Below are positions 25,601-54,233 of a DNA stretch of 64,000 nt, piece after piece. The translations under genes were made by a program, and so were the position numbers. The notes under the pieces are model-generated. The model was not told the DNA's origin, did not search any database, and was given only the letters and a program-made list of their open reading frames with translations. The first letter of the stretch is position 1. Each line of letters opens with the position of its first letter. The DNA comes from a virus, in UHGV virus genome UHGV-0211472; one strand, 5' to 3'.

Positions 25601-26158
25601 TTACATTTTCCAATATAATGAAGGTGGGTCGTAAGGGTCAAATCCTGTGAGTTCACACAAGTATTTATAAACCTTAACAGTTAAATTAACGTCCTGTTCA
25701 CAATAAGTAAACATATCCTCAGTGAAAGCATCCCATGCTTCCTCTTGCTCACCGTAATCACCTTTAAGTTCCCCTAAGAACTCACCCCATTGCTTCAAGC
25801 CATGACCTCTTGGGCCATGTCTAGGGTCGCCTTTCGGGTACTCAGGACTGTCACCAATACGGTCAGGTTTAAGATATCGACTAAGACATAAAGTGTCAAA
25901 GACGTTAAAACGATAGTTAATCAGATTGGGATACATCTTCTTCAGAGCACAAAGGTCGAAGTCAATAATATTGTGACCCACGAGCACATCTGCTTCTGTA
26001 AGTTTATGAATCCCATCTTCAATTTGGTGAGGCCGATAGCCCCACCTTTCACCAGTTTCAACATCGAAAACATAAATACACCATACTTTGGTTATATCAT
26101 CGTATAGTGCATTACTCTCAATATCGAATGCAAACACTTTCTTCTTTTTCTTTACCAC
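25601..26158 (-). CDS. DnaQ-like 3'-5' exonuclease (stand-alone proofreading domain of family A polymerase type)
   Basis: Exo I FDIES, Exo II HNIIDFD, Exo III YCEQD motifs; GTG start overlapping the upstream stop. Confidence 0.7.
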
Positions 26159-26712
26159 GGTGAAGCTCCATCTGCTTGGCTGACGAGAGAAGCTGCATCC
26201 TCTCCGTTAGTTAAAACGAATGGATTATCTTCATCAACTTCAAAGTCTTCCCTTTCTACAAGTCTACCGGTTTCACTGATATACTTAGTATAACAGACAC
26301 CTGTCTGACCGTAGTTACGTTCTTTCAGTAATCGAATGACTGAGAGGTTCTTAGCTAAGCCGTCAGCTTGCTTGTCACGCTCAAAGCCAATGATACACTG
26401 ACACCAACGCATAAGAGAACGAGAGCCAGTGAACTGTACTTCACGTACCTGTCCACCTTCTTCATGAGGAGCACCACCTGCCGGAGCATTAAGGTGAGAT
26501 AGCACGAAAGCGGTAAAGTCTAACTCTTTACACATACCAGCAAGCTCGGAAGCGATCTTACTGATTTCAGTGTTAATCTCTGAAGGTGTTAAATGAGATA
26601 CCAGAGCGGTAATGTTATCAAGGATGATAAATTTACACTGGTTTTCAACTACCCAGAAACGAATACACTGTTTAATGTCTTCCCATTCGTTTTGCAATAA
26701 TTCAATGAAGGA
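26152..26712 (-). CDS. primase-helicase, exon 2 (helicase C-terminal part)
   Basis: [33 protein letters not shown]... continues the T7-gp4-type helicase (H2 onward) in frame once the intron is removed; 5' boundary predicted. Confidence 0.65.
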
Positions 26713-26947
26713 CGCAACTCCTTCACCCGTAGCATTATATCTACTGCCCGTGGTTTCCCACGGGATTGGACTATATCATCACTCCTATTAAGGAGGCTAG
26801 GCGCTTCCACTAGCATTAGCTTCTAGTGTACTCCTTTCGGATAGTCTCTGCACTTTCTAGGATGTATCCTAGCTTAGCTCAGGATTGGCATATCTTTCGA
26901 CTTAGCTTTCCCTGAATTCACCTAGTTTTACTTCGGCCATTGTGTTA
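26713..26947 (-). ncRNA. group I self-splicing intron (ORF-less) within primase-helicase gene
   Basis: no ORF; begins with in-frame UAA; P1 pairing of exon end ACUUCGGU with intron GGCCGAAGU (terminal U-G wobble); R-like GCAGAGACUA and S-like GAUAUAGUCC; P9-like hairpin CCCGUGG-GAAA-CCACGGG; terminal G; boundaries uncertain by a few nt. Confidence 0.65.
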
Positions 26948-28195
26948 ACCGAAGTTGTCATACAAGAAGAATTTGTCTGCATAACGAAGTGCTTCATTAC
27001 GCAAATCCTCTTCATCATATTCAACATCAGGTCGGTGGAAAGGAATTGATGCTGACTTACCAGCGATGTTCTTAACAGACATGCCTACCTTCTCTTCCAA
27101 GAAGAAGCCACCCCCATTAAAACCATGTTCTAAGCACAGATGAGCAACAAGTTCGTGAGCAATTAGTGTTTTACCACTACCTACACCACCACCGATGGCT
27201 ACCACCTCTCCCCATCGAATACCGAAGGTCATCTCATTCAGAGTCTTCCACGGGTAGGGGATACCCCACTCCGCTTTCTTCAGAGCATCATCAAGACAAT
27301 CAAAGATTGTTACAGCTCCGGCAGGAGATTCCCGCTTTGCTGAATACTTGAGAATGTTGAATAACTCTTGACCGCGACCAGACAGAAGCATGTCATTCGC
27401 ATCCTTAATCTCTTTCTCCACACCGTTGTATGGGAAAGTTCCTTTAGGAATACGAGCAAACTTAACATGAGGGAATAAAGAACGACCTTTTGTTAAAGCT
27501 ATCTCACCTGCATCATCGTTGTCCATGCAGAGCACAACCTCCTCAAAACCATTTACGAAGTCTCGGTTACGAGACAACACAGAAGAGATTGAACCTGCAC
27601 CGAACGGTAAAGAAACACAGGCTGGTTTAATGTTTGTTGCATTTGTAAAAGCTGTAAGGACATGGAAACCAGACATACAAGATAGCGGGTCTTCAAAAAT
27701 GAACAGCTTCTTGTTGTACACGTCTCCCCGTTGAGCTTGTGCCATACCAAATAAATCTGCTTCTTTCACACTGCCGACGTAATAAAACTTCTTACTATCT
27801 AGCAGTTTAACCTCATATCCGACAATGTTTCCATCACGTTCACGAGGAAAGAAGTAACTGTCTGGTGTCTGACCATCAGTTTGACTGAGACCAATACGAC
27901 ACTCAAAACGCTCTGATACAGCCTTGGGAATTAAACGGCGAGTAAGTTCACCCTGAGGGAGTTCTAAGCAATCATCTAAGACTTCTCTCAACTCTTCAGG
28001 GGATAACTCTTTCTTCTCATTTGGAGTAGGTGTAGTGCCCTTTTCGAACACTTCGTAATTCCCACAACGGTTACAACTTCCCCACTCCTCACCGGTCTCT
28101 TCGTTACGGAAGAGAATCATGTGGTTGTGGGTTTTATCACGACCATGAGAGATACATTCCTTACAACCTGTGTCTCCCAAAATGATCTTTGACAT
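26948..28195 (-). CDS. primase-helicase, exon 1 (zinc-binding primase, TOPRIM, helicase Walker A)
   Basis: N-terminal Cys4 zinc ribbon (CKECISHG...CNRCGNYE), TOPRIM-like acidic motifs, Walker A GGGVGSGKT, ends ...KFFLYDNFG like T7 gp4 ...FHLYDSFA. Confidence 0.8.
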
Positions 28196-48061: not shown

Positions 48062-48427
48062 CTATGGATTTACACATTGACCGTTGCCGGATTTTATTTC
48101 GTTCATAGACTCGTCAAAGAGCGTCAACGACGAGCGCAACAAGTGATCGACCGTAATTTGTTTGCCAGTGGTTTCGTTAGTCATATAGATAGACTTGTCA
48201 TAGACTACAACACTCTCAAAATCTTCTACATGTAAAATAATAACTTTAGGTGACTGTTTACCAGTTTCATAATCTTCTATCAAATAGGTGCACTGTAGAC
48301 CTTCGATAGTATCAGGTGTGAACGTTGCAGCCTTCACACTACCCATAGACGATAGCAGGACACCTAACAGGAGAACAACAAGGAAGAAGCCTACAACCGT
48401 TTTAACGACGAATTTAATAAACCACAT
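48062..48427 (-). CDS. secreted or membrane-anchored protein (121 aa)
   Basis: N-terminal hydrophobic signal/anchor FIKFVVKTVVGFFLVVLLLGVLLSSMGSVKA. Confidence 0.45.
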   Translation of the reverse strand: MWFIKFVVKTVVGFFLVVLLLGVLLSSMGSVKAATFTPDTIEGLQCTYLIEDYETGKQSPKVIILHVEDFESVVVYDKSIYMTNETTGKQITVDHLLRSSLTLFDESMNEIKSGNGQCVNP

Positions 48428-49290: not shown

Positions 49291-49767
49291 TTATTTTGCT
49301 TTAACACAATCACCCATCTGGAAGCGGAACGTCCAGATACTATTATCAGCAGCATAGACGGAAGTGGCTAACATGGTTTCTTGCATTGTGCCATACGTTA
49401 CCAGATTAGTCACAACTTTAGAGCCTTTGATAGTCTGCACATCGCCAAAGGTAATCAACTCAGGGTCATTGTCTTTGCGAGAAAGGAGAATATCCTCATT
49501 GTTCTGATTGTCAAGTGTATGAGTAGACAGCACCATACCACGATTGGTTACGTTAGATAACTTAACCTTCATCAACGTAGTGACATTATCTGAATCCAAC
49601 CCTTTACAAACCATCCAACCTTTAGGAGCGTTGCTAACGAATGTATCAGCAGCATCATTCACAACTACAGCAGCTTGAGCAACTGGAGCACTAGCAATCT
49701 TGTCAGCGATAGCCATGCTACCGAAGGTTAATATCAGAGCACCGATTACAAAGTTTGACTTAGTCAT
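49291..49767 (-). CDS. secreted protein (158 aa), first gene of minus-strand early unit
   Basis: N-terminal signal peptide MTKSNFVIGALILTFGSMAIA; RBS AAAGGAA; sigma70-like promoter just upstream. Confidence 0.5.
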   Translation of the reverse strand: MTKSNFVIGALILTFGSMAIADKIASAPVAQAAVVVNDAADTFVSNAPKGWMVCKGLDSDNVTTLMKVKLSNVTNRGMVLSTHTLDNQNNEDILLSRKDNDPELITFGDVQTIKGSKVVTNLVTYGTMQETMLATSVYAADNSIWTFRFQMGDCVKAK

Positions 49768-49808
49768 GATTGATTCCTTTAGTTGGTATGCTTCGTTTCA
49801 ATGAGATA

Positions 49809-49837
49809 ACTATACTTCTTACTACACAACAAGTCAA
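49809..49837 (-). promoter_or_regulatory. sigma70-like promoter (minus strand)
   Basis: minus-strand TTGACT (49832-49837) - 17 nt - TATAGT (49809-49814) with AT-rich upstream region. Confidence 0.5.
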
Positions 49838-50129
49838 CAACTAATTTTAATTCTTTTATGATTCACGATGTAGCCTGAGCAACCGCAGTTCTCAGAGAGC
49901 CATTACTCACTTGGCTTCTCCAGTGACCCGATAGTGTTCCAGCCTTAGCCAGTCAATCGCGGAGTCCTTACATCTAATCACTTTCCACTACTTAGGACGA
50001 TTATCCTTCATGGAACCTACTACTATCTAGCTACTTGGTATCGCTACTTCGCTTCGATGAATACAATTTACTACTTCTTACTAAGGAAAGCAAGCGCTAC
50101 GGGTAAAATATTTCTACTATCTATATAGG

Positions 50130-50572
50130 ACGGGGAGATAACAACCGCAGGACAGACCACGGGGAAGGGTAGCCAGATAGTGCGGTAATAATATACCACT
50201 TAAATAATTGTATAACTCAAACATCAAAGACCGTTCGTACTACGTACTCACCATTCGCTACGCTCATGTACGCTGAAAAAGAAAGTAATAAAAGAATATA
50301 ATAAACATCAAACATAATCTTTCCACTTAATTAATACATACATCATTATTGCACTCATAATAACAACTATTGAAACTATTATCAACGTAACTATGGGGGC
50401 TTGTGACTGTTACTCATGGGCATTATATCGCCTTAATCTATTGGTACAGTGGAAGACCATTATCAGTGCTAGCCTTTCATCCATTCAGTAAAGGGGAACT
50501 AAATAAACGGGTAGGTAATGAATAGGATGGTATACACGGGGAAAGAATAACGGGGAGTAGGCACGGGGAAGG
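50130..50572. repeat. iteron-like direct repeats ACGGGGA(A/G), five copies in two clusters
   Basis: copies at 50130-50137, 50160-50167, 50536-50543, 50550-50557, 50563-50570 inside the ORF-poor divergent control region. Confidence 0.5.
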
Positions 50573-50999
50573 TTGGAACGTTGAAAGGGAAGGTAAAGGC
50601 ATTCCCATATGAGCTTTTTTAAATGAGGACTCCCCTTTTTTAGGAAACGCGCGGAAGCTGCCTAGCCCCACTCGGTCAAATTGAAATTTTAAACTGTTAT
50701 ATATAAGCTTGATAACTTTATTACGGGGTTGGATACTACACATGAAGTAGTTCACTACGTTCAAGTAGCCTTAACGTGACATAGCCTTTATGGGAGTGCC
50801 TTAATGTGAGGTCCCCTTTATGTCTTAACTTTATCAGAGGGATTTATGACTGAAGATGAATATGGTAGCTTCTCTGAAGAAGACTACGAAAATGAATACA
50901 GGTATGCTCACGGGTATTAATGTGAGGAGGCCTTTACGGGTAGGTAGTCATCAGAGAAGATGATGTGCCCTTTATACTTTCTACTCAGAGGAAAATAAT

Positions 51000-51110
51000 A
51001 TGGGATGGTTCCTGTTGGGTTTAATTCTTTTTGCCACTGTTCCTATTGTTGCTGTGTTTGGTTGCATAGCCGCTGACTTATTGGGAATAAAGAAAGGAGA
51101 TGAATTATGA
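51000..51110 (+). CDS. short hydrophobic peptide (36 aa)
   Basis: not in ORF track; ATG preceded by GAGGAAAA; MGWFLLGLILFATVPIVAVFGCIAADLLGIKKGDEL; stop overlaps next start (ATGA). Confidence 0.3.
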   Translation: MGWFLLGLILFATVPIVAVFGCIAADLLGIKKGDEL

Positions 51111-51463
51111 GATTGGATTTAAGAGGTTGTACTAGGTCAGTTATATTGTTCAGAGGTTATGCTATCAAGATTCCTACTTTTAAATCTTGGAAGCTTTTCT
51201 TAAAAGGGATTCTTGCTAACCTACAAGAGAGACATTTCTCTGAGATGAAAGACCCCAACCTTTGTCCTGTAGTCTTCTCTGATAAGTTTGGTTTCTTAGT
51301 AATAATGAAGAGGTGTAAGGTGGTTAAGCACAAAGGATTGTGGATGGCAGAGCTTCACACCTTGAAAGGCTCCCTTCCTAAAGAATTTTACCTGTCAGAC
51401 CTTAAGCCAGAAAATTATGGATACCTAGGCGGACGGTTGGTTAAATTAGATTATGGAGATTGA
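51107..51463 (+). CDS. hypothetical protein (118 aa)
   Basis: ORF; first long gene of plus-strand unit. Confidence 0.45.
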   Translation: MRLDLRGCTRSVILFRGYAIKIPTFKSWKLFLKGILANLQERHFSEMKDPNLCPVVFSDKFGFLVIMKRCKVVKHKGLWMAELHTLKGSLPKEFYLSDLKPENYGYLGGRLVKLDYGD

Positions 51464-51687
51464 TCATGAATTTAATACTAGACTTTTTATCAGAGGTGAT
51501 TCCACGGTTCAGAACAGAGACTTGCGCCTTTGTTAAGATATCCCCTGAAGAATTAGAATGCATCGGTCGTCTGGTTGACTTGGATGACGATGAAGAATTT
51601 GATGCAACGATGGAAGTTAGTAGCCTAGGATGGTTATTCTTCCGAGCGTTCACCACTATCAAACCACACACTTATAAGGAATATTAA
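51460..51687 (+). CDS. hypothetical protein (75 aa)
   Basis: ORF, start overlaps upstream stop. Confidence 0.4.
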   Translation: MIMNLILDFLSEVIPRFRTETCAFVKISPEELECIGRLVDLDDDEEFDATMEVSSLGWLFFRAFTTIKPHTYKEY

Positions 51688-51690
51688 TTT

Positions 51691-52092
51691 ATGCTAGACT
51701 TAATCCACACTACTCGCCCTGATTCTAAAACTAAAACACAACCATCTACTCTGGAAGTAGTTGAATACGAATCTACTAAATATGATCACCTCCCTGACTA
51801 TGCTCGTGCAATGATTGAGATGATTGAAGAAGCTGAATATGAAATGCTCCATGATTACATTACCTCCAAAGATGAATGGCATCGTGATGTTCGCATCGAA
51901 GAAGATGGTACAGAAACAATTACGTGGATTCACAAGAGTGAGTTAGTAGACGACGCACTGCGAGACTACGAAAAATTTTTGGTCGACGGCTCTATTCTTT
52001 TAGAGGAAGAGAAGGGTGCAGAACTTCCGTGGGAAGGCGAGACGATTGCTCTTGGTAAGATGTTTAACCTGTCCGTTGGTGATTGTAAGTAA
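51691..52092 (+). CDS. hypothetical acidic protein (133 aa)
   Basis: ORF. Confidence 0.45.
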   Translation: MLDLIHTTRPDSKTKTQPSTLEVVEYESTKYDHLPDYARAMIEMIEEAEYEMLHDYITSKDEWHRDVRIEEDGTETITWIHKSELVDDALRDYEKFLVDGSILLEEEKGAELPWEGETIALGKMFNLSVGDCK

Positions 52093-52148
52093 TGTTTGCC
52101 TCCTTTGGGAGGCTTTTTGTGTTGTTGATAATGTAGAAGGAGTATAAA

Positions 52149-52622
52149 ATGTTTGGAGAAAACGGAGAACTCACACCTGCACAGGTAGCTGAGATTACAG
52201 GAAGATTACCCGGAGTAACGGAAGAACTTGAAGTCCGTGGTATGAACCCAAGCAATGGGAAGTTTCAAAAGGGAAATAAATTCGGACGACCCAAAGGTAG
52301 TAGAGGTAAACTGACACAATTAATGTTGGACCGTGTTGCTGCAAGTCATTTGTCTCCTGATGAAGTGTTAATTCAAATTTACGAAGATCCTAATATTCCA
52401 CCTGATCTTAGATTCAAGGCTGCATCAAAAGTTGCAGATCTGGTATATCCTAAGGCGGCCTCTGTTGAAGTTAAGATTGAGGAAGAGAATGTAATCAACG
52501 AAGAATCATTGAATGCACAAATCAAGGACTTCTTGACTGGAGCACTTGGTATCGATGTTATGCCTCCAGAAGAAGATAACTCTGAGGACGCTGAAAAGGG
52601 GGAGGAAGCGGACGAGAGTTAA
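52149..52622 (+). CDS. putative terminase small subunit
   Basis: immediately upstream of large terminase; basic N-terminal segment NGKFQKGNKFGRPKGSRGK typical of small-terminase DNA-binding regions; acidic C-terminus. Confidence 0.4.
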   Translation: MFGENGELTPAQVAEITGRLPGVTEELEVRGMNPSNGKFQKGNKFGRPKGSRGKLTQLMLDRVAASHLSPDEVLIQIYEDPNIPPDLRFKAASKVADLVYPKAASVEVKIEEENVINEESLNAQIKDFLTGALGIDVMPPEEDNSEDAEKGEEADES

Positions 52623-52691: not shown

Positions 52692-54233
52692 ATGTCATTA
52701 GATAAACAAATTTATGAAGCTCTAACTGGTAACAACCTTAGTGTAGATGAAAAGAAAGCACTATTGAATATGTTGAAAGAGCGTGACCAATGGAGGAAGT
52801 ATAATAGGATTTTGTCTTTCAAGGCGTATGACTTCCAAAAGAAATTTTATGCAGCAGGATTGAAGCATCGCTTTAGATTCTTGTGTGCAGCGAACCGTGT
52901 TGGTAAATCTTATAGTGAGGCATACGAGTTTGCTTGTCATGTCACAGGTCGCTACCCAACTTGGTGGACAGGATATAAATTTAAAAGACCTATCTTAGCA
53001 TGGGCAGTTGGTATTACAGGGGATTCCACAAGGAAAGTATTGCAAAAGGAATTGTTTGGTACACCTATCGGAAAGGATACAAATTTATTAGGGACAGGTG
53101 TCATTCCTCGTGATGCTATCGTCATTGATACGATAGAACGAGATGGTAACAAACTTCAAATCGTACAAATCAAACATCAAAATGAGAGAGGAGAGTTTGA
53201 CGGTTTAAGTACATTAGAATTCCGTTCAACCCAACAGGGTGAACATACATTGATGGGTGCAACAGTTGACTACATTTGGTTAGACGAAGAAGATCCATAC
53301 GAGTCTATGGCTATATTCGCACAGTGTGTCACACGTACACTCACAACTAAAGGTCTAGTTACAATTACAGCTACACCAGAGAACGGTTTAACTGAACTGG
53401 TAGATAAATTTATGAAAGGTGAAGGAGATGAGAACACGGGTTCTCTATATTTCCAGAATGCTTCTTGGTGGGATGCTCATGCAGACCTAGGTGGACATAT
53501 CACTGACCAAGATATAAAAGATATGACTGAAGGTATTCCAGCGTGGCAATTAGAGATGCGTTCAAAAGGTATGCCATTGTTAGGAAGTGGTTTGATTTAT
53601 GATGTATCGGATGACACAATTAAATGTGAACCATTCGAAATTCCTGATACGTGGAAACGTGTCTGTGCAATTGATATTGGTATTGATCACCCAACTGCTG
53701 CTGTTTGGACAGCTTACGACGCAAACACGGATACTATCTATGTTTACGACTCATATAAAGAAGGTGGCTTTACTCCAGTGTATCATGCTCCAGCTATTAA
53801 TGGTCGTGGTCAGTGGATTCCTGTCATCCTACCGCATGACGCGGACAATATTGAGAAAGGTAGTGGTTCATCTGTTGCTCAATTCTATAAGAATGCAGGA
53901 GTTAATGTACAGAGTGATACCTTCTACAACAAAATTGGAATGGATGGTAAAAAGAACTTCTTTGTAGAACCGGGAATCACAGATATCCGAGAAAGAATGA
54001 TGAGTGGACGCTTTAAAATCTTTAACACAGCCGCTAACGCTAAGCTATTCGAAGAGAAAGCTAGATATCACCGTAAGGTTGGTAAGATTATTAAAGAACA
54101 TGATGACTTAATGGATGCAATGCGCTATTCAGCGTGCTCTGTTACACATCGTGGTCGCTCTAAGCATGATGTTAGCTACGGAAGCGCTTCTTTGTATGAG
54201 GCAAACGTAAGCAGATGGAATCAGAGTTACTAA
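52692..54233 (+). CDS. terminase large subunit
   Basis: Walker A CAANRVGKS, Walker B VDYIWLDEE, C-terminal RNase H-like nuclease acidic residues (CAIDIGIDH, DDLMDAMRY). Confidence 0.85.
   Translation: MSLDKQIYEALTGNNLSVDEKKALLNMLKERDQWRKYNRILSFKAYDFQKKFYAAGLKHRFRFLCAANRVGKSYSEAYEFACHVTGRYPTWWTGYKFKRPILAWAVGITGDSTRKVLQKELFGTPIGKDTNLLGTGVIPRDAIVIDTIERDGNKLQIVQIKHQNERGEFDGLSTLEFRSTQQGEHTLMGATVDYIWLDEEDPYESMAIFAQCVTRTLTTKGLVTITATPENGLTELVDKFMKGEGDENTGSLYFQNASWWDAHADLGGHITDQDIKDMTEGIPAWQLEMRSKGMPLLGSGLIYDVSDDTIKCEPFEIPDTWKRVCAIDIGIDHPTAAVWTAYDANTDTIYVYDSYKEGGFTPVYHAPAINGRGQWIPVILPHDADNIEKGSGSSVAQFYKNAGVNVQSDTFYNKIGMDGKKNFFVEPGITDIRERMMSGRFKIFNTAANAKLFEEKARYHRKVGKIIKEHDDLMDAMRYSACSVTHRGRSKHDVSYGSASLYEANVSRWNQSY

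Follow-up and report, generated by a model that had tools for sequence, protein, structure and literature searches.

The region at positions 49768 to 51106 of the DNA analysed here (a 64,000-nucleotide stretch of the UHGV virus genome UHGV-0211472, referred to below as the window) appears to contain the ends of the viral chromosome. Judged from its sequence, the contig comes from a phiEco32-like (Kuravirus) podophage and was assembled in circularly permuted form; the ends of the phage genome can be placed by homology. The region would correspond to a concatemer junction composed of right-end unique DNA (49768-50470), a collapsed direct terminal repeat (DTR, 50471-50663) and left-end unique DNA (50664-51106). 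We consider it probable, on balance, that the region is such a junction in a permuted assembly and that its short repeats are cis-acting terminus signals used in concatemer processing and packaging.

Window positions 50471-50663 (plus strand) are homologous to the 193-bp DTR of phiEco32, with 93.5% identity over 184 of 193 nt. The exact 193-bp DTR is carried by the phiEco32 record, and compared with SU10, Paul, MN03 and others, identity was 86-92% across 95-99% of the repeat. Base 1 of this repeat is also the first base of at least six independent records (phiEco32, SU10, WFI101126, CHD5UKE1, Paul and IMEP8); the ends of the Paul record were annotated by PhageTerm. The phiEco32 repeat was reported by Savalia et al. 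2008 (as cited in PMC9965538) and is also known from SU10, Paul and YF01. DTRs have been demonstrated experimentally in phiEco32, Paul and YF01, and 193-bp DTRs have been established by restriction mapping with primer walking, PhageTerm and nanopore reads (PMC9965538). The offset of the terminase gene (window 52692 versus phiEco32 2240) puts phiEco32 coordinate 1 within about 20 bp of window position 50471, the offset of about 20 bp being explained by indels in the left-end DNA. The DTR of the window has the same length, boundary sequences and position as that of phiEco32 and other Kuraviruses, with the last leftward early gene on one side and the TerS/TerL genes on the other. Compared with phiEco32, it is internal and in one copy, the phiEco32 left-end gene 1 is missing, and 51107-51741 is occupied by a different gene module. 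One internal copy, as found in the window, is the expectation for a collapsed assembly (PMC10438801).

From the alignment, the predicted virion ends fall between 50470 and 50471 (GTGCT^AGCCTTTC) and between 50663 and 50664 (GCCT^AGCCCCAC), and CT^AGCC is present at both DTR boundaries in the window. At the right boundary (...GGCT^AG) the CT^AG motif was kept in 16 of 16 aligned genomes. At the left boundary it was kept in 13 of 16, with AT^AG in ev_rybdy3 and TH38 and CT^GG in MN03. CT^AG is also retained by the lineage with a 250-bp DTR, in which NC-B has an annotated repeat_region at 1-250. Some additional TAGCC copies were seen that are not conserved among the relatives.

The virion chromosome would begin at 50471 and finish at 50663 with the DTR at either end, and the sequence as read in the window would exist in replicating concatemers. 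The terminase would cut at the two CT^AGCC boundary motifs, the DTR being duplicated as in T7-type packaging. If the region is made up of right end, DTR and left end, its two halves would lie at opposite ends of the virion chromosome and would not be adjacent in the injected linear DNA, and it would therefore not be one divergent intergenic control region, as proposed in the first-pass annotation. That description holds in so far as leftward early genes lie on one side of the region and rightward packaging and structural genes on the other, and sigma70-like promoters are present; what it missed are the physical ends inside. Placing the true ends at the two predicted sites corrects an annotation as a single intergenic control region and matters for phage engineering and rebooting, since DTR genomes need both repeats.

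Two families of short repeats surround these ends. The five ACGGGGA(A/G) copies in two clusters noted previously were all located (50130, 50159, 50536, 50550 and 50563, all on the plus strand), while the rest of the 64 kb held only 2 copies, both on the minus strand. The total of 7 compares with 1.6 expected by chance, and none of 100 shuffles reached 7. For the more degenerate heptamer ACGGGKA, 9 of 18 window copies lie within the region, all on the plus strand, against 0.19 expected (binomial P = 6.7e-14). ACGGGKA was enriched nowhere else in the 64 kb, which argues for a feature of the terminus and not a genome-wide regulatory word, and it was not found at the other operon starts of the window. 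The right-end cluster (50099-50165, plus strand) consists of ACGGGTA at 50099 and ACGGGGA at 50130 and 50159, spaced 31 and 29 bp apart, and sits 311-371 bp to the left of the DTR. The array within the DTR (50507-50569, plus strand) consists of ACGGGTA at DTR position +37 and ACGGGGA at +66, +80 and +93, spaced 29, 14 and 13 bp apart. Spacings between the repeats group at 13-15 and 26-31 bp.

The repeats are conserved in relatives as well as non-random; lack of conservation had been named beforehand as an observation that would speak against a function, and this was not what we found. Of 16 aligned genomes, 15 have the right-end cluster at the corresponding position, always on the plus strand, with Bas93 as the exception, and across the 16 genomes all ACGGGKA copies but one were on the plus strand. 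DTR positions +37 and +66 were retained even where the flanks could not be aligned. These conserved positions amount to only about 3-4 independent observations, because genomes of one lineage are close relatives of each other. In TH43, MLP3 and NC-B, the lineage with the 250-bp DTR, ATGGGTA replaces ACGGGGA in the right-end and DTR clusters together, and the first copy of each cluster is still ACGGGTA. Such a coordinated switch is what would be expected for sites read by one diverging trans-acting factor, and the sequence comparison argues for this. A 7-bp complementarity between ACGGGGAGT and ACTCCCC was considered and dropped, as it showed no co-variation in the ATGGGTA lineage.

The second family, SCCYTTA in units of 14-16 bp, accounts for the TTAAYGTGA and GCCYTTAYGGG motifs described earlier. 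It forms a tandem array on the plus strand of the left-end DNA (50766-50822; GCCTTAA at 50768, GCCTTTA at 50784, GCCTTAA at 50798 and CCCTTTA at 50814), of which every relative has 2-5 units, all on the plus strand. Inside the DTR the motif occurs twice in inverted (+19, +124) and once in direct orientation (+162). A repeat search also recovered a 25-nt unit, GCCTTAAYGTGA-N4-SCCTTTAYG, that joins both right-hand motifs and is present in 3 copies. Further left-end units lie at 50910-50976 (plus strand): ACGGGTA at 50910 and 50936, TTAATGTGA-GGAG-GCCTTTA at 50917-50936 and TGATGTGCCCTTTATAC at 50960-50976. The window holds three TTAAYGTGA copies and no more, at 50771, 50801 and 50917; the first two had been placed at about 50795 and 50806, which is off by about 25 and about 5 bases. 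GCCYTTAYGGG, said to occur several times, has two exact copies in the region (50784 and 50930) and one elsewhere, and reaches several when the degenerate form CCCTTTAT at 50813 and 50967 is admitted. The terminal regions of the relatives are mosaic, with frequent indels.

Together, these are two families of uniform polarity, ACGGGKA in the right-end DNA and DTR and SCCYTTA mainly in the left-end DNA, with steps of 13-16 bp or multiples thereof. Such arrays could mark the junction and orient it for concatemer processing and packaging, and would probably be bound by an oligomeric protein. We infer the binding of a protein to the repeats, the identity of that protein and packaging as the process served; the position in and around the DTR, the fixed polarity and a parallel in T7 (see below) point to the packaging or terminus role.

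Besides the repeats, several blocks of the region are conserved. A sigma70-like promoter on the minus strand (TTGACT-17-TATAGT, 49837 to 49809, 10 of 12 consensus matches) was found as previously described, proximal to the first leftward (early) gene with its start codon at 49767. It is placed like the early promoter that, in published work, precedes the last leftward gene of SU10/phiEco32, but the sequences are not homologous. The alignment further revealed a conserved minus-strand block at 50176-50209 with an extended -10-like TGGTATATT; it is a possible second leftward promoter, recognized by eye and unflagged by the consensus scan. Between the heptamer clusters lies an AT-rich stretch (50268-50345, 78 bp) with 23% G+C compared to 42% for the window. 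It is followed by the most conserved right-end block (50346-50400, minus strand), identified by alignment and promoter scan, which contains a leftward sigma70-like TTGATA-17-TATTAT with a TG extension (50385 to 50357) and TGCAATAAT, invariant in the relatives. The most invariant DTR block, CTTTTTTAAATGAGGACTCCCCTTTTTTAGGAAACGCGC (50614-50652, plus strand), stops 11 bp short of the right boundary and was 92-100% conserved even where a lineage's DTR was otherwise unalignable; it matches the conserved DTR region at 'positions ~130-170' noted earlier (PMC9965538). Beyond the boundary, the alignment defined an invariant left-end block, AGCCCCACTCGGTCAAAT...TTTTAAAC..TTATATATAAG (50664-50708, plus strand), in which the SU10 authors saw a potential sigma70 promoter driving the left-end genes. 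This block was unflagged by the sigma70 consensus scan, its -10 being weak. Inward-facing sigma70 promoters are predicted at the right end, and the left end has a weaker candidate. A search for tRNA genes found none. At the gathering threshold, Rfam matched a group I intron only in the whole window, outside the region, and a permissive Rfam scan of 49700-51200 gave no match. Folding indicated neither a structured RNA in the 346-nt leftward leader (z = -0.17) nor a hairpin end in the DTR folded as single-stranded DNA (z = +0.83).

The first-pass annotation saw no credible ORFs in the region, which agrees with our result for 49768-50845, where no ORF of at least 20 aa had a ribosome-binding site (RBS) or was conserved. 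The 95-aa ORF at 50477-50764 spans the DTR, and none of the relatives' records examined has a CDS annotated there. The right-hand part does hold two short plus-strand ORFs preceded by a Shine-Dalgarno RBS. One, at 50846-50920, encodes a short acidic peptide of 24 aa (MTEDEYGSFSEEDYENEYRYAHGY) found in MN03, phiEco32 and Bas89 and missing from most other relatives. The other, at 51000-51110, encodes a hydrophobic peptide of 36 aa (CAGAGGAAAATAATATG) and is the first clear rightward gene of the genome.

A putative small terminase (TerS), the homologue of phiEco32 gp6, is encoded at 52149-52622 (plus strand), immediately upstream of the large terminase (TerL, 52692-54233) with Pfam domains Terminase_6N and Terminase_6C. 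The top PDB matches of the putative TerS profile, both of them small-terminase entries, were marginal (7JOQ, E = 0.012; 6W7T, PaP3 TerS, E = 0.18), a single-sequence PDB search was empty, and the AlphaFold model was poor (pLDDT 63, pTM 0.26) with meaningless Foldseek matches. HHpred gave the same small-terminase assignment in a previous study (PMC9965538). It may be counted among the proteins that could read the junction signals. When co-variation of TerS with the heptamer variant was tested, none was seen: the putative TerS is 91-93% identical between the ACGGGGA and ATGGGTA lineages, a divergence no greater than within a lineage. The reader of the heptamers may therefore be another protein, and the invariant blocks at 50614-50708 are the more plausible target of TerS.

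As a control, the same analysis of T7 recovered CCTAAAG 13 times, on one strand only. The sites were at -106 and -77 (right-end DNA), at +17, +41 and +60 (DTR) and from +175 to +332 (left-end DNA), with spacings of 13, 25 and 26 bp, and the hexamer CTATCT is common to both DTR boundaries. The heptamer arrays adjoining the 160-bp terminal repeat of T7 were reportedly named SRL and SRR by Dunn and Studier in 1983; to our knowledge, their function has never been established. T7 and the window are alike in having a one-strand heptamer in about 10-13 copies over right-end DNA, DTR and left-end DNA, spacings of about 13 bp and multiples thereof, a boundary hexamer shared by both DTR ends and inward-facing host RNA polymerase promoters near an end. 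They differ in that there is no sequence homology (CCTAAAG in one family versus ACGGGKA and SCCYTTA in two), the Kuraviruses have neither a phage RNA polymerase nor phiOL/phiOR promoters, and carry their early genes at the right instead of the left end. Since the array motifs differ, the T7 arrays are an analogue and not a homologue, and what the likeness transfers is the pattern, not a proven mechanism. In T3 and T7, the determinants of packaging specificity map no further than 5% of the genome from its ends, and it is at the concatemer junction that processing begins (PMC3276506).

Short repeated elements within about 40-200 bp of the cuts, as proposed here, also occur in lambda cosB (R1-R3, bound by gpNu1), in the pacL/pacR boxes of SPP1 and in the PaP3 cos 20-mer. 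The latter is bound by PaP3 TerS (PMC7672466), a distant relative of which is encoded near the region. The PaP3 cos oligonucleotide GCCGGCCCCTTTCCGCGTTA has CCCCTTT...CGCG in common with the invariant DTR block and CCCCTTT in common with the left-end units. In contrast to the cos systems, the predicted ends here are of the blunt DTR type and not cohesive. There is also no co-variation between TerS and the form of the ACGGGKA motif.

Whereas terminus or packaging cis signals are the most likely role of the repeats, the earlier suggestions of origin iterons or regulator binding sites are possible ones, with the adjacent AT-rich stretch as the only positive support. ACGGGKA could represent origin iterons bound by an initiator that opens 50268-50345, or the region could contain a T7-style origin primed from the leftward promoter at 50385 to 50357; we regard this as unlikely. 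The T7 primary origin combines a promoter with AT-rich DNA, and the layout here resembles it: two direct-repeat clusters lie either side of the 78-bp, 23% G+C stretch, directly adjoined by sigma70-like promoters. The direct repeats of lambda ori, P1 oriR and pSC101 adjoin an AT-rich stretch in the same way. However, a core of 7-8 bp repeated at intervals of 13-15 and 26-31 bp contrasts with 17-22-bp iterons in helical phase; Rep-like or initiator domains were not found in the neighbouring ORFs; and the copies are divided between two chromosome ends, so that half of them, in DTR or left-end DNA, would be 77 kb from the AT-rich stretch in the infecting linear genome. The cumulative GC-skew minimum at 49-50 kb fits an origin but is explicable without one because it coincides with the switch in gene orientation. 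Moreover, T7 has like arrays at its termini, and its primary origin is located away from them. Equally doubtful is that the repeats are operators through which a phage or host regulator controls the early promoters at both ends, for example in early shut-off. The predicted promoters are flanked by repeats on both sides, and the coordinated motif switch implies a trans-acting reader other than the conserved TerS. Variability in these genomes is greatest among the end-adjacent early genes (PMC8948821), and a variable early protein could therefore fill this role. Against operators, the copies share one polarity although the promoters diverge, most are 100-350 bp away from the predicted -35/-10 elements with no overlap, and the motif is missing from other early promoter regions in the window. 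The only shut-off factor in the literature surveyed, gp79, is presented there as an inhibitor of the sigma70 holoenzyme and not as binding DNA (PMC8948821, PMC12276001).

Promoters for the phage sigma factor, which the first-pass annotation called ECF-like, fared worst of its three proposed functions and are unlikely. It is very improbable that the TTAATGTGAGG elements and TAATGAATA in the DTR are gp36 promoters for late rightward transcription of the left end. The gp36 (phage sigma) element is tAATGTAtA (PMC8948821); TAATGTGAG matches its first six bases but is mismatched at positions 7-9, of which 7 and 9 are capitals in the published consensus. TAATGAATA at 50516, one mismatch off, is the region's only match within one mismatch, and some relatives have TAATGTATT at the equivalent position. 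A late promoter is also known upstream of gene 1 in the distant relative 7-11 (PMC8948821). The six mapped phiEco32 promoters, in contrast, are upstream of genes 6, 13, 26, 40, 58 and 68 (PMC4331800, PMC8948821), with none in this region though phiEco32 has the same elements, and the true homologue of the gene 6 promoter is TAATGTAGA at 52129. At the equivalent of 50801 most relatives have AACATGAAG or ATGAAG instead of the TAATGT kept by phiEco32, at the equivalent of 50917 TAATGT is kept only in phiEco32 and MN03, and ACGGGKA would be left wholly unexplained. Just as remote is the view that the arrays are functionless by-products of recombination, slippage or repair at chromosome ends. It would suit the mosaic, indel-rich termini and the non-conserved extra TAGCC copies, but single-strand polarity, conserved DTR positions, regular spacing and a coordinated change of two clusters are unexpected for neutral debris, and a like pattern arose independently in T7.

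With the arrays read as terminus signals, the region offers a compact map of cis elements that may serve to recognize the ends, in a family with unstudied packaging: the two CT^AGCC boundaries, the invariant core of about 95 bp across the right boundary (50614-50708) and the two polar arrays. If the arrays were required, the T7 parallel would revive the old question of the role of terminal repeats; if they were dispensable, the region would simply be the expected terminus of a phiEco32-like phage. A broader proposal, which we put forward as speculative and rather unlikely, is that short same-strand arrays with a step of about 13-15 bp at the DTR are a general cis signal of DTR phages, evolved independently in T7 and the Kuraviruses and read by a lineage-specific factor other than TerS that gives the junction its polarity or directs repeat duplication. 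If this were true, Kuravirus lineages that naturally differ in the motif would offer a genetic handle on the reader factor and on the T7 arrays.

The DTR itself was already known. The heptamer arrays appear to be undescribed: the phiEco32-family literature surveyed mentions neither the arrays, with their polarity and spacing, nor the repetition of CT^AGCC at the boundaries, although the first reports on phiEco32 (Savalia 2008, Pavlova 2012), outside that survey, may do so. An exact-pattern scan of IMG/VR with the DTR core returned phiEco32 itself only. The 2.8-kb terminal intergenic region of phage 7-11 has other repeats and no motif in common with the window. LUZ24 has no clean heptamer array, and GGGGAATATCCC is common to both of its DTR boundaries.

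In a full-length alignment, the segment 50471-50663 was 93.5% identical to the exact 193-bp repeat found at each end of the phiEco32 record, and its first base is the record start for phiEco32, SU10, WFI101126, CHD5UKE1, Paul and IMEP8. Counting from the large terminase gene places phiEco32 coordinate 1 no more than ~20 bp from window 50471, and indels in left-end DNA account for the difference. The Paul record carries the annotation 'direct terminal repeat predicted by PhageTerm'. Kuravirus-like phages have direct terminal repeats (DTRs) of ~190 bp with a core conserved at positions ~130-170 and package from concatemers as T7 does; experiments established the DTRs of phiEco32, Paul and YF01, and similarity revealed them in 30 phages (PMC9965538). 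In short-read assemblies the two DTR copies are commonly merged into one and the contig is opened at another place (PMC10438801), and only one copy was found in the window. The homology to the phiEco32 DTR, the record starts of the relatives and the single, collapsed-type copy indicate with high confidence that 49768-51106 is the DTR junction of the concatemer. In virion DNA, 49768-50663 would form the right end and 50471-51106 the left end.

The stretch 49600-51300 matched 122 phage records at ~80-84% identity, almost all of them from phiEco32-group Escherichia phages (Kuravirus, Gordonclarkvirinae), and a 24-kb piece around the junction was ~93% identical to several of this group over ~69% of its length. 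The gene order is that described for the group, with leftward early genes (minus strand) ending at 49767, and a putative small terminase (TerS, 52149-52622) and the large terminase (52692-54233) both running rightward. The stretch 51107-51741, which separates the left-end arrays from an 'ABC transporter'-like gene, carries other genes than genes 4 and 5 of phiEco32 (PHROGs 4301 and 12698); from 51742 on, identity to phiEco32 rises abruptly to 98%, which indicates a mosaic module boundary. Gene 1 of phiEco32, which encodes a 66-aa Cys/His-rich protein and directly follows the left-end promoter in most relatives, is absent from the window, where ~55 bp (50713-50767) stand opposite phiEco32 243-410. 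The region had been described as free of credible ORFs; this held up to 50845, but two short ORFs with ribosome-binding sites lie beyond (50846-50920 and 51000-51110).

The anatomy of the junction was derived from a 16-genome alignment. In the window, the left DTR boundary reads GTGCT^AGCCTTTC and the right one GCCT^AGCCCCAC; both predicted cuts lie in CT^AG(S)C. All 16 genomes have CT^AG at the right boundary and 13 have it at the left, the exceptions being ev_rybdy3 and TH38 (AT|AG) and MN03 (CT|GG). A second lineage (TH43, MLP3 and NC-B) has a repeat of 249-250 bp with unchanged boundaries, annotated in the NC-B record as a repeat_region at 1-250. The most invariant DNA, 50614-50652 (TTTTTTAAATGAGGACTCCCC..TTTTTAGGAAACGCGC), stops 11 bp short of the right boundary. 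The 45 bp directly after that boundary (ACTCGGTCAAAT..TTTTAAAC..TTATATATAAG) are also invariant, and were listed by the SU10 authors as a potential sigma70 promoter. The right-end DNA contains an AT-rich stretch (50268-50345, 23% G+C), a gene-proximal promoter and, within a strongly conserved block (50346-50400), sigma70-like promoters that point leftward. The boundary word TAGCC is enriched (eight copies on the plus strand, none on the minus strand), and only the two copies at the boundaries are conserved.

All motifs reported in the first-pass annotation were recovered, including a leftward TTGACT-17-TATAGT site (49837 to 49809); what that annotation made of them holds in part. ACGGGGAR occurs at 50130, 50159, 50536, 50550 and 50563, and at just two other places in the 64 kb, the expected number being 1.6. 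Of the 18 window copies of the slightly wider ACGGGKA, nine fall in this 1.3-kb region, each on the plus strand (P = 6.7e-14). TTAAYGTGA was found at 50771, 50801 and 50917 and nowhere else in the window, and GCCYTTAYGGG matched exactly at 50784 and 50930 within the region; these two motifs are halves of a single 25-nt unit present in three copies.

Two repeat families emerged from the 16 genomes. Family 1 (AYGGGKW) lies on the plus strand with one exception among ~160 copies. It occupies +37, +66, +80 and +93 of the DTR, is clustered again 250-450 bp to the left, in right-end DNA, with two to four copies (only Bas93 lacks this cluster), and has a few copies to the right as well. The relatives' '+323 ACGGGGA' copy sits within gene 1, where it may simply be coding sequence. 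DTR copies in the 250-bp-DTR lineage are at +37, +66, +94 and +109, and there ATGGGTA replaces ACGGGGA both in the DTR and in the distant right-end cluster, the first copy of each cluster staying ACGGGTA. Binding sites for one diverging factor would be expected to change in this coordinated way in separate clusters. Family 2 is SCCYTTA preceded, at 3-5 nt, by TGA or GTGA. Every genome has it in left-end DNA as tandem units of 14-16 bp, without exception on the plus strand; of the copies within the DTR, those at +19 and +124 are inverted and the one at +162 is direct. Distances between copies group around 13-16 bp and about double that in both families.

T7 has the same architecture with unrelated sequences. 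Around the exact 160-bp DTR of the T7 record, the 13 copies of CCTAAAG share one strand and lie in right-end DNA (-106, -77), in the DTR (+17, +41, +60) and in left-end DNA (+175 to +332), with spacings of 13, 25 and 26 bp, and CTATCT spans each DTR boundary. LUZ24 has a 12-mer (GGGGAATATCCC) common to both boundaries, and no clean heptamer array was found in its ends. CTAGCC plays this boundary-repeat role in the window, and a direct repeat common to both boundaries may mark DTR cut sites more generally.

We tentatively read the arrays as terminus signals in concatemer processing and packaging; the junction assignment and this reading, taken as a whole, are somewhat favored. A replication origin is also possible, with the repeats as iterons beside AT-rich DNA and a promoter, but the unit size and phasing of the repeats do not fit, an initiator gene is lacking and the copies are divided between both chromosome ends. 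The repeats could likewise be operators, although their uniform polarity and their distance from promoters argue against this. Promoters for the phage sigma factor (gp36 of phiEco32), also suggested in the first-pass annotation, are unlikely: the mapped consensus is tAATGTAtA, its six known sites all lie outside this region, and at 50801, one of the three TTAAYGTGA sites, most relatives read AACATGAAG or ATGAAG, even though phiEco32 keeps TAATGT there. The region was also searched for structured RNA, for members of known RNA families and, up to 50845, for overlooked genes, and none was found. Separately, TAATGAATA at 50516-50524, inside the DTR, is one mismatch from the gp36 element, and PGN6866, ev_rybdy3, TH38 and SGF2 have TAATGTATT there; a phage-sigma promoter within the terminal repeat would, if true, parallel the phage-polymerase promoters near T7 ends.

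As to what might read the proposed signals, the candidate TerS, a homologue of phiEco32 gp6, gave marginal profile matches to 7JOQ (E = 0.012) and 6W7T, the PaP3 TerS (E = 0.18), both small-terminase structures; the assignment also comes from a published HHpred result (PMC9965538). Since the protein is 91-93% identical between the two heptamer lineages, the invariant core is its more likely target than the variable heptamers. PaP3 TerS, a distant relative, binds a cos 20-mer, GCCGGCCCCTTTCCGCGTTA, containing CCCCTTT..CGCG (PMC7672466). Both words recur in the invariant DTR block (50625-50652), and CCCCTTT in the left-end units (50807-50820); as a match between sequences, the shared CCCCTTT offers a lead. 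The putative TerS also has an invariant GNKFGRPKGSRGKLTQ segment (residues 38-65; window 52187-52207) with a weak DUF5681 match, whose GRPKG core resembles an AT-hook and might fit the A/T runs of the invariant junction blocks.

The DTR and its conserved core are already published. The literature examined, which did not include the two original phiEco32 papers, mentions neither the arrays, with their spacing and polarity, nor the boundary repeat, the motif switch between lineages or the parallel with T7.

Two further observations concern the early region and the replication genes. The 121-aa early-region ORF at 48062-48427 (minus strand) belongs to a 'terminase'-labelled PHROG (phrog_13168), and the record of phi32_125, its homologue in phiEco32, likewise reads 'terminase'; since no Pfam terminase domain was found in the ORF's product and its neighbours are early genes, this label seems to be an inherited error. 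At 26747-26957 (minus strand), a group I intron (Rfam RF00028, 86 bits, E = 1.4e-20) is placed between ORFs 26945-28195 and 26152-26697. The second of these ORFs matches the DnaB-like helicase C-terminal domain weakly and below threshold (21.4 bits, cut-off 27), and the primase/helicase gene thus appears to be split by the intron.
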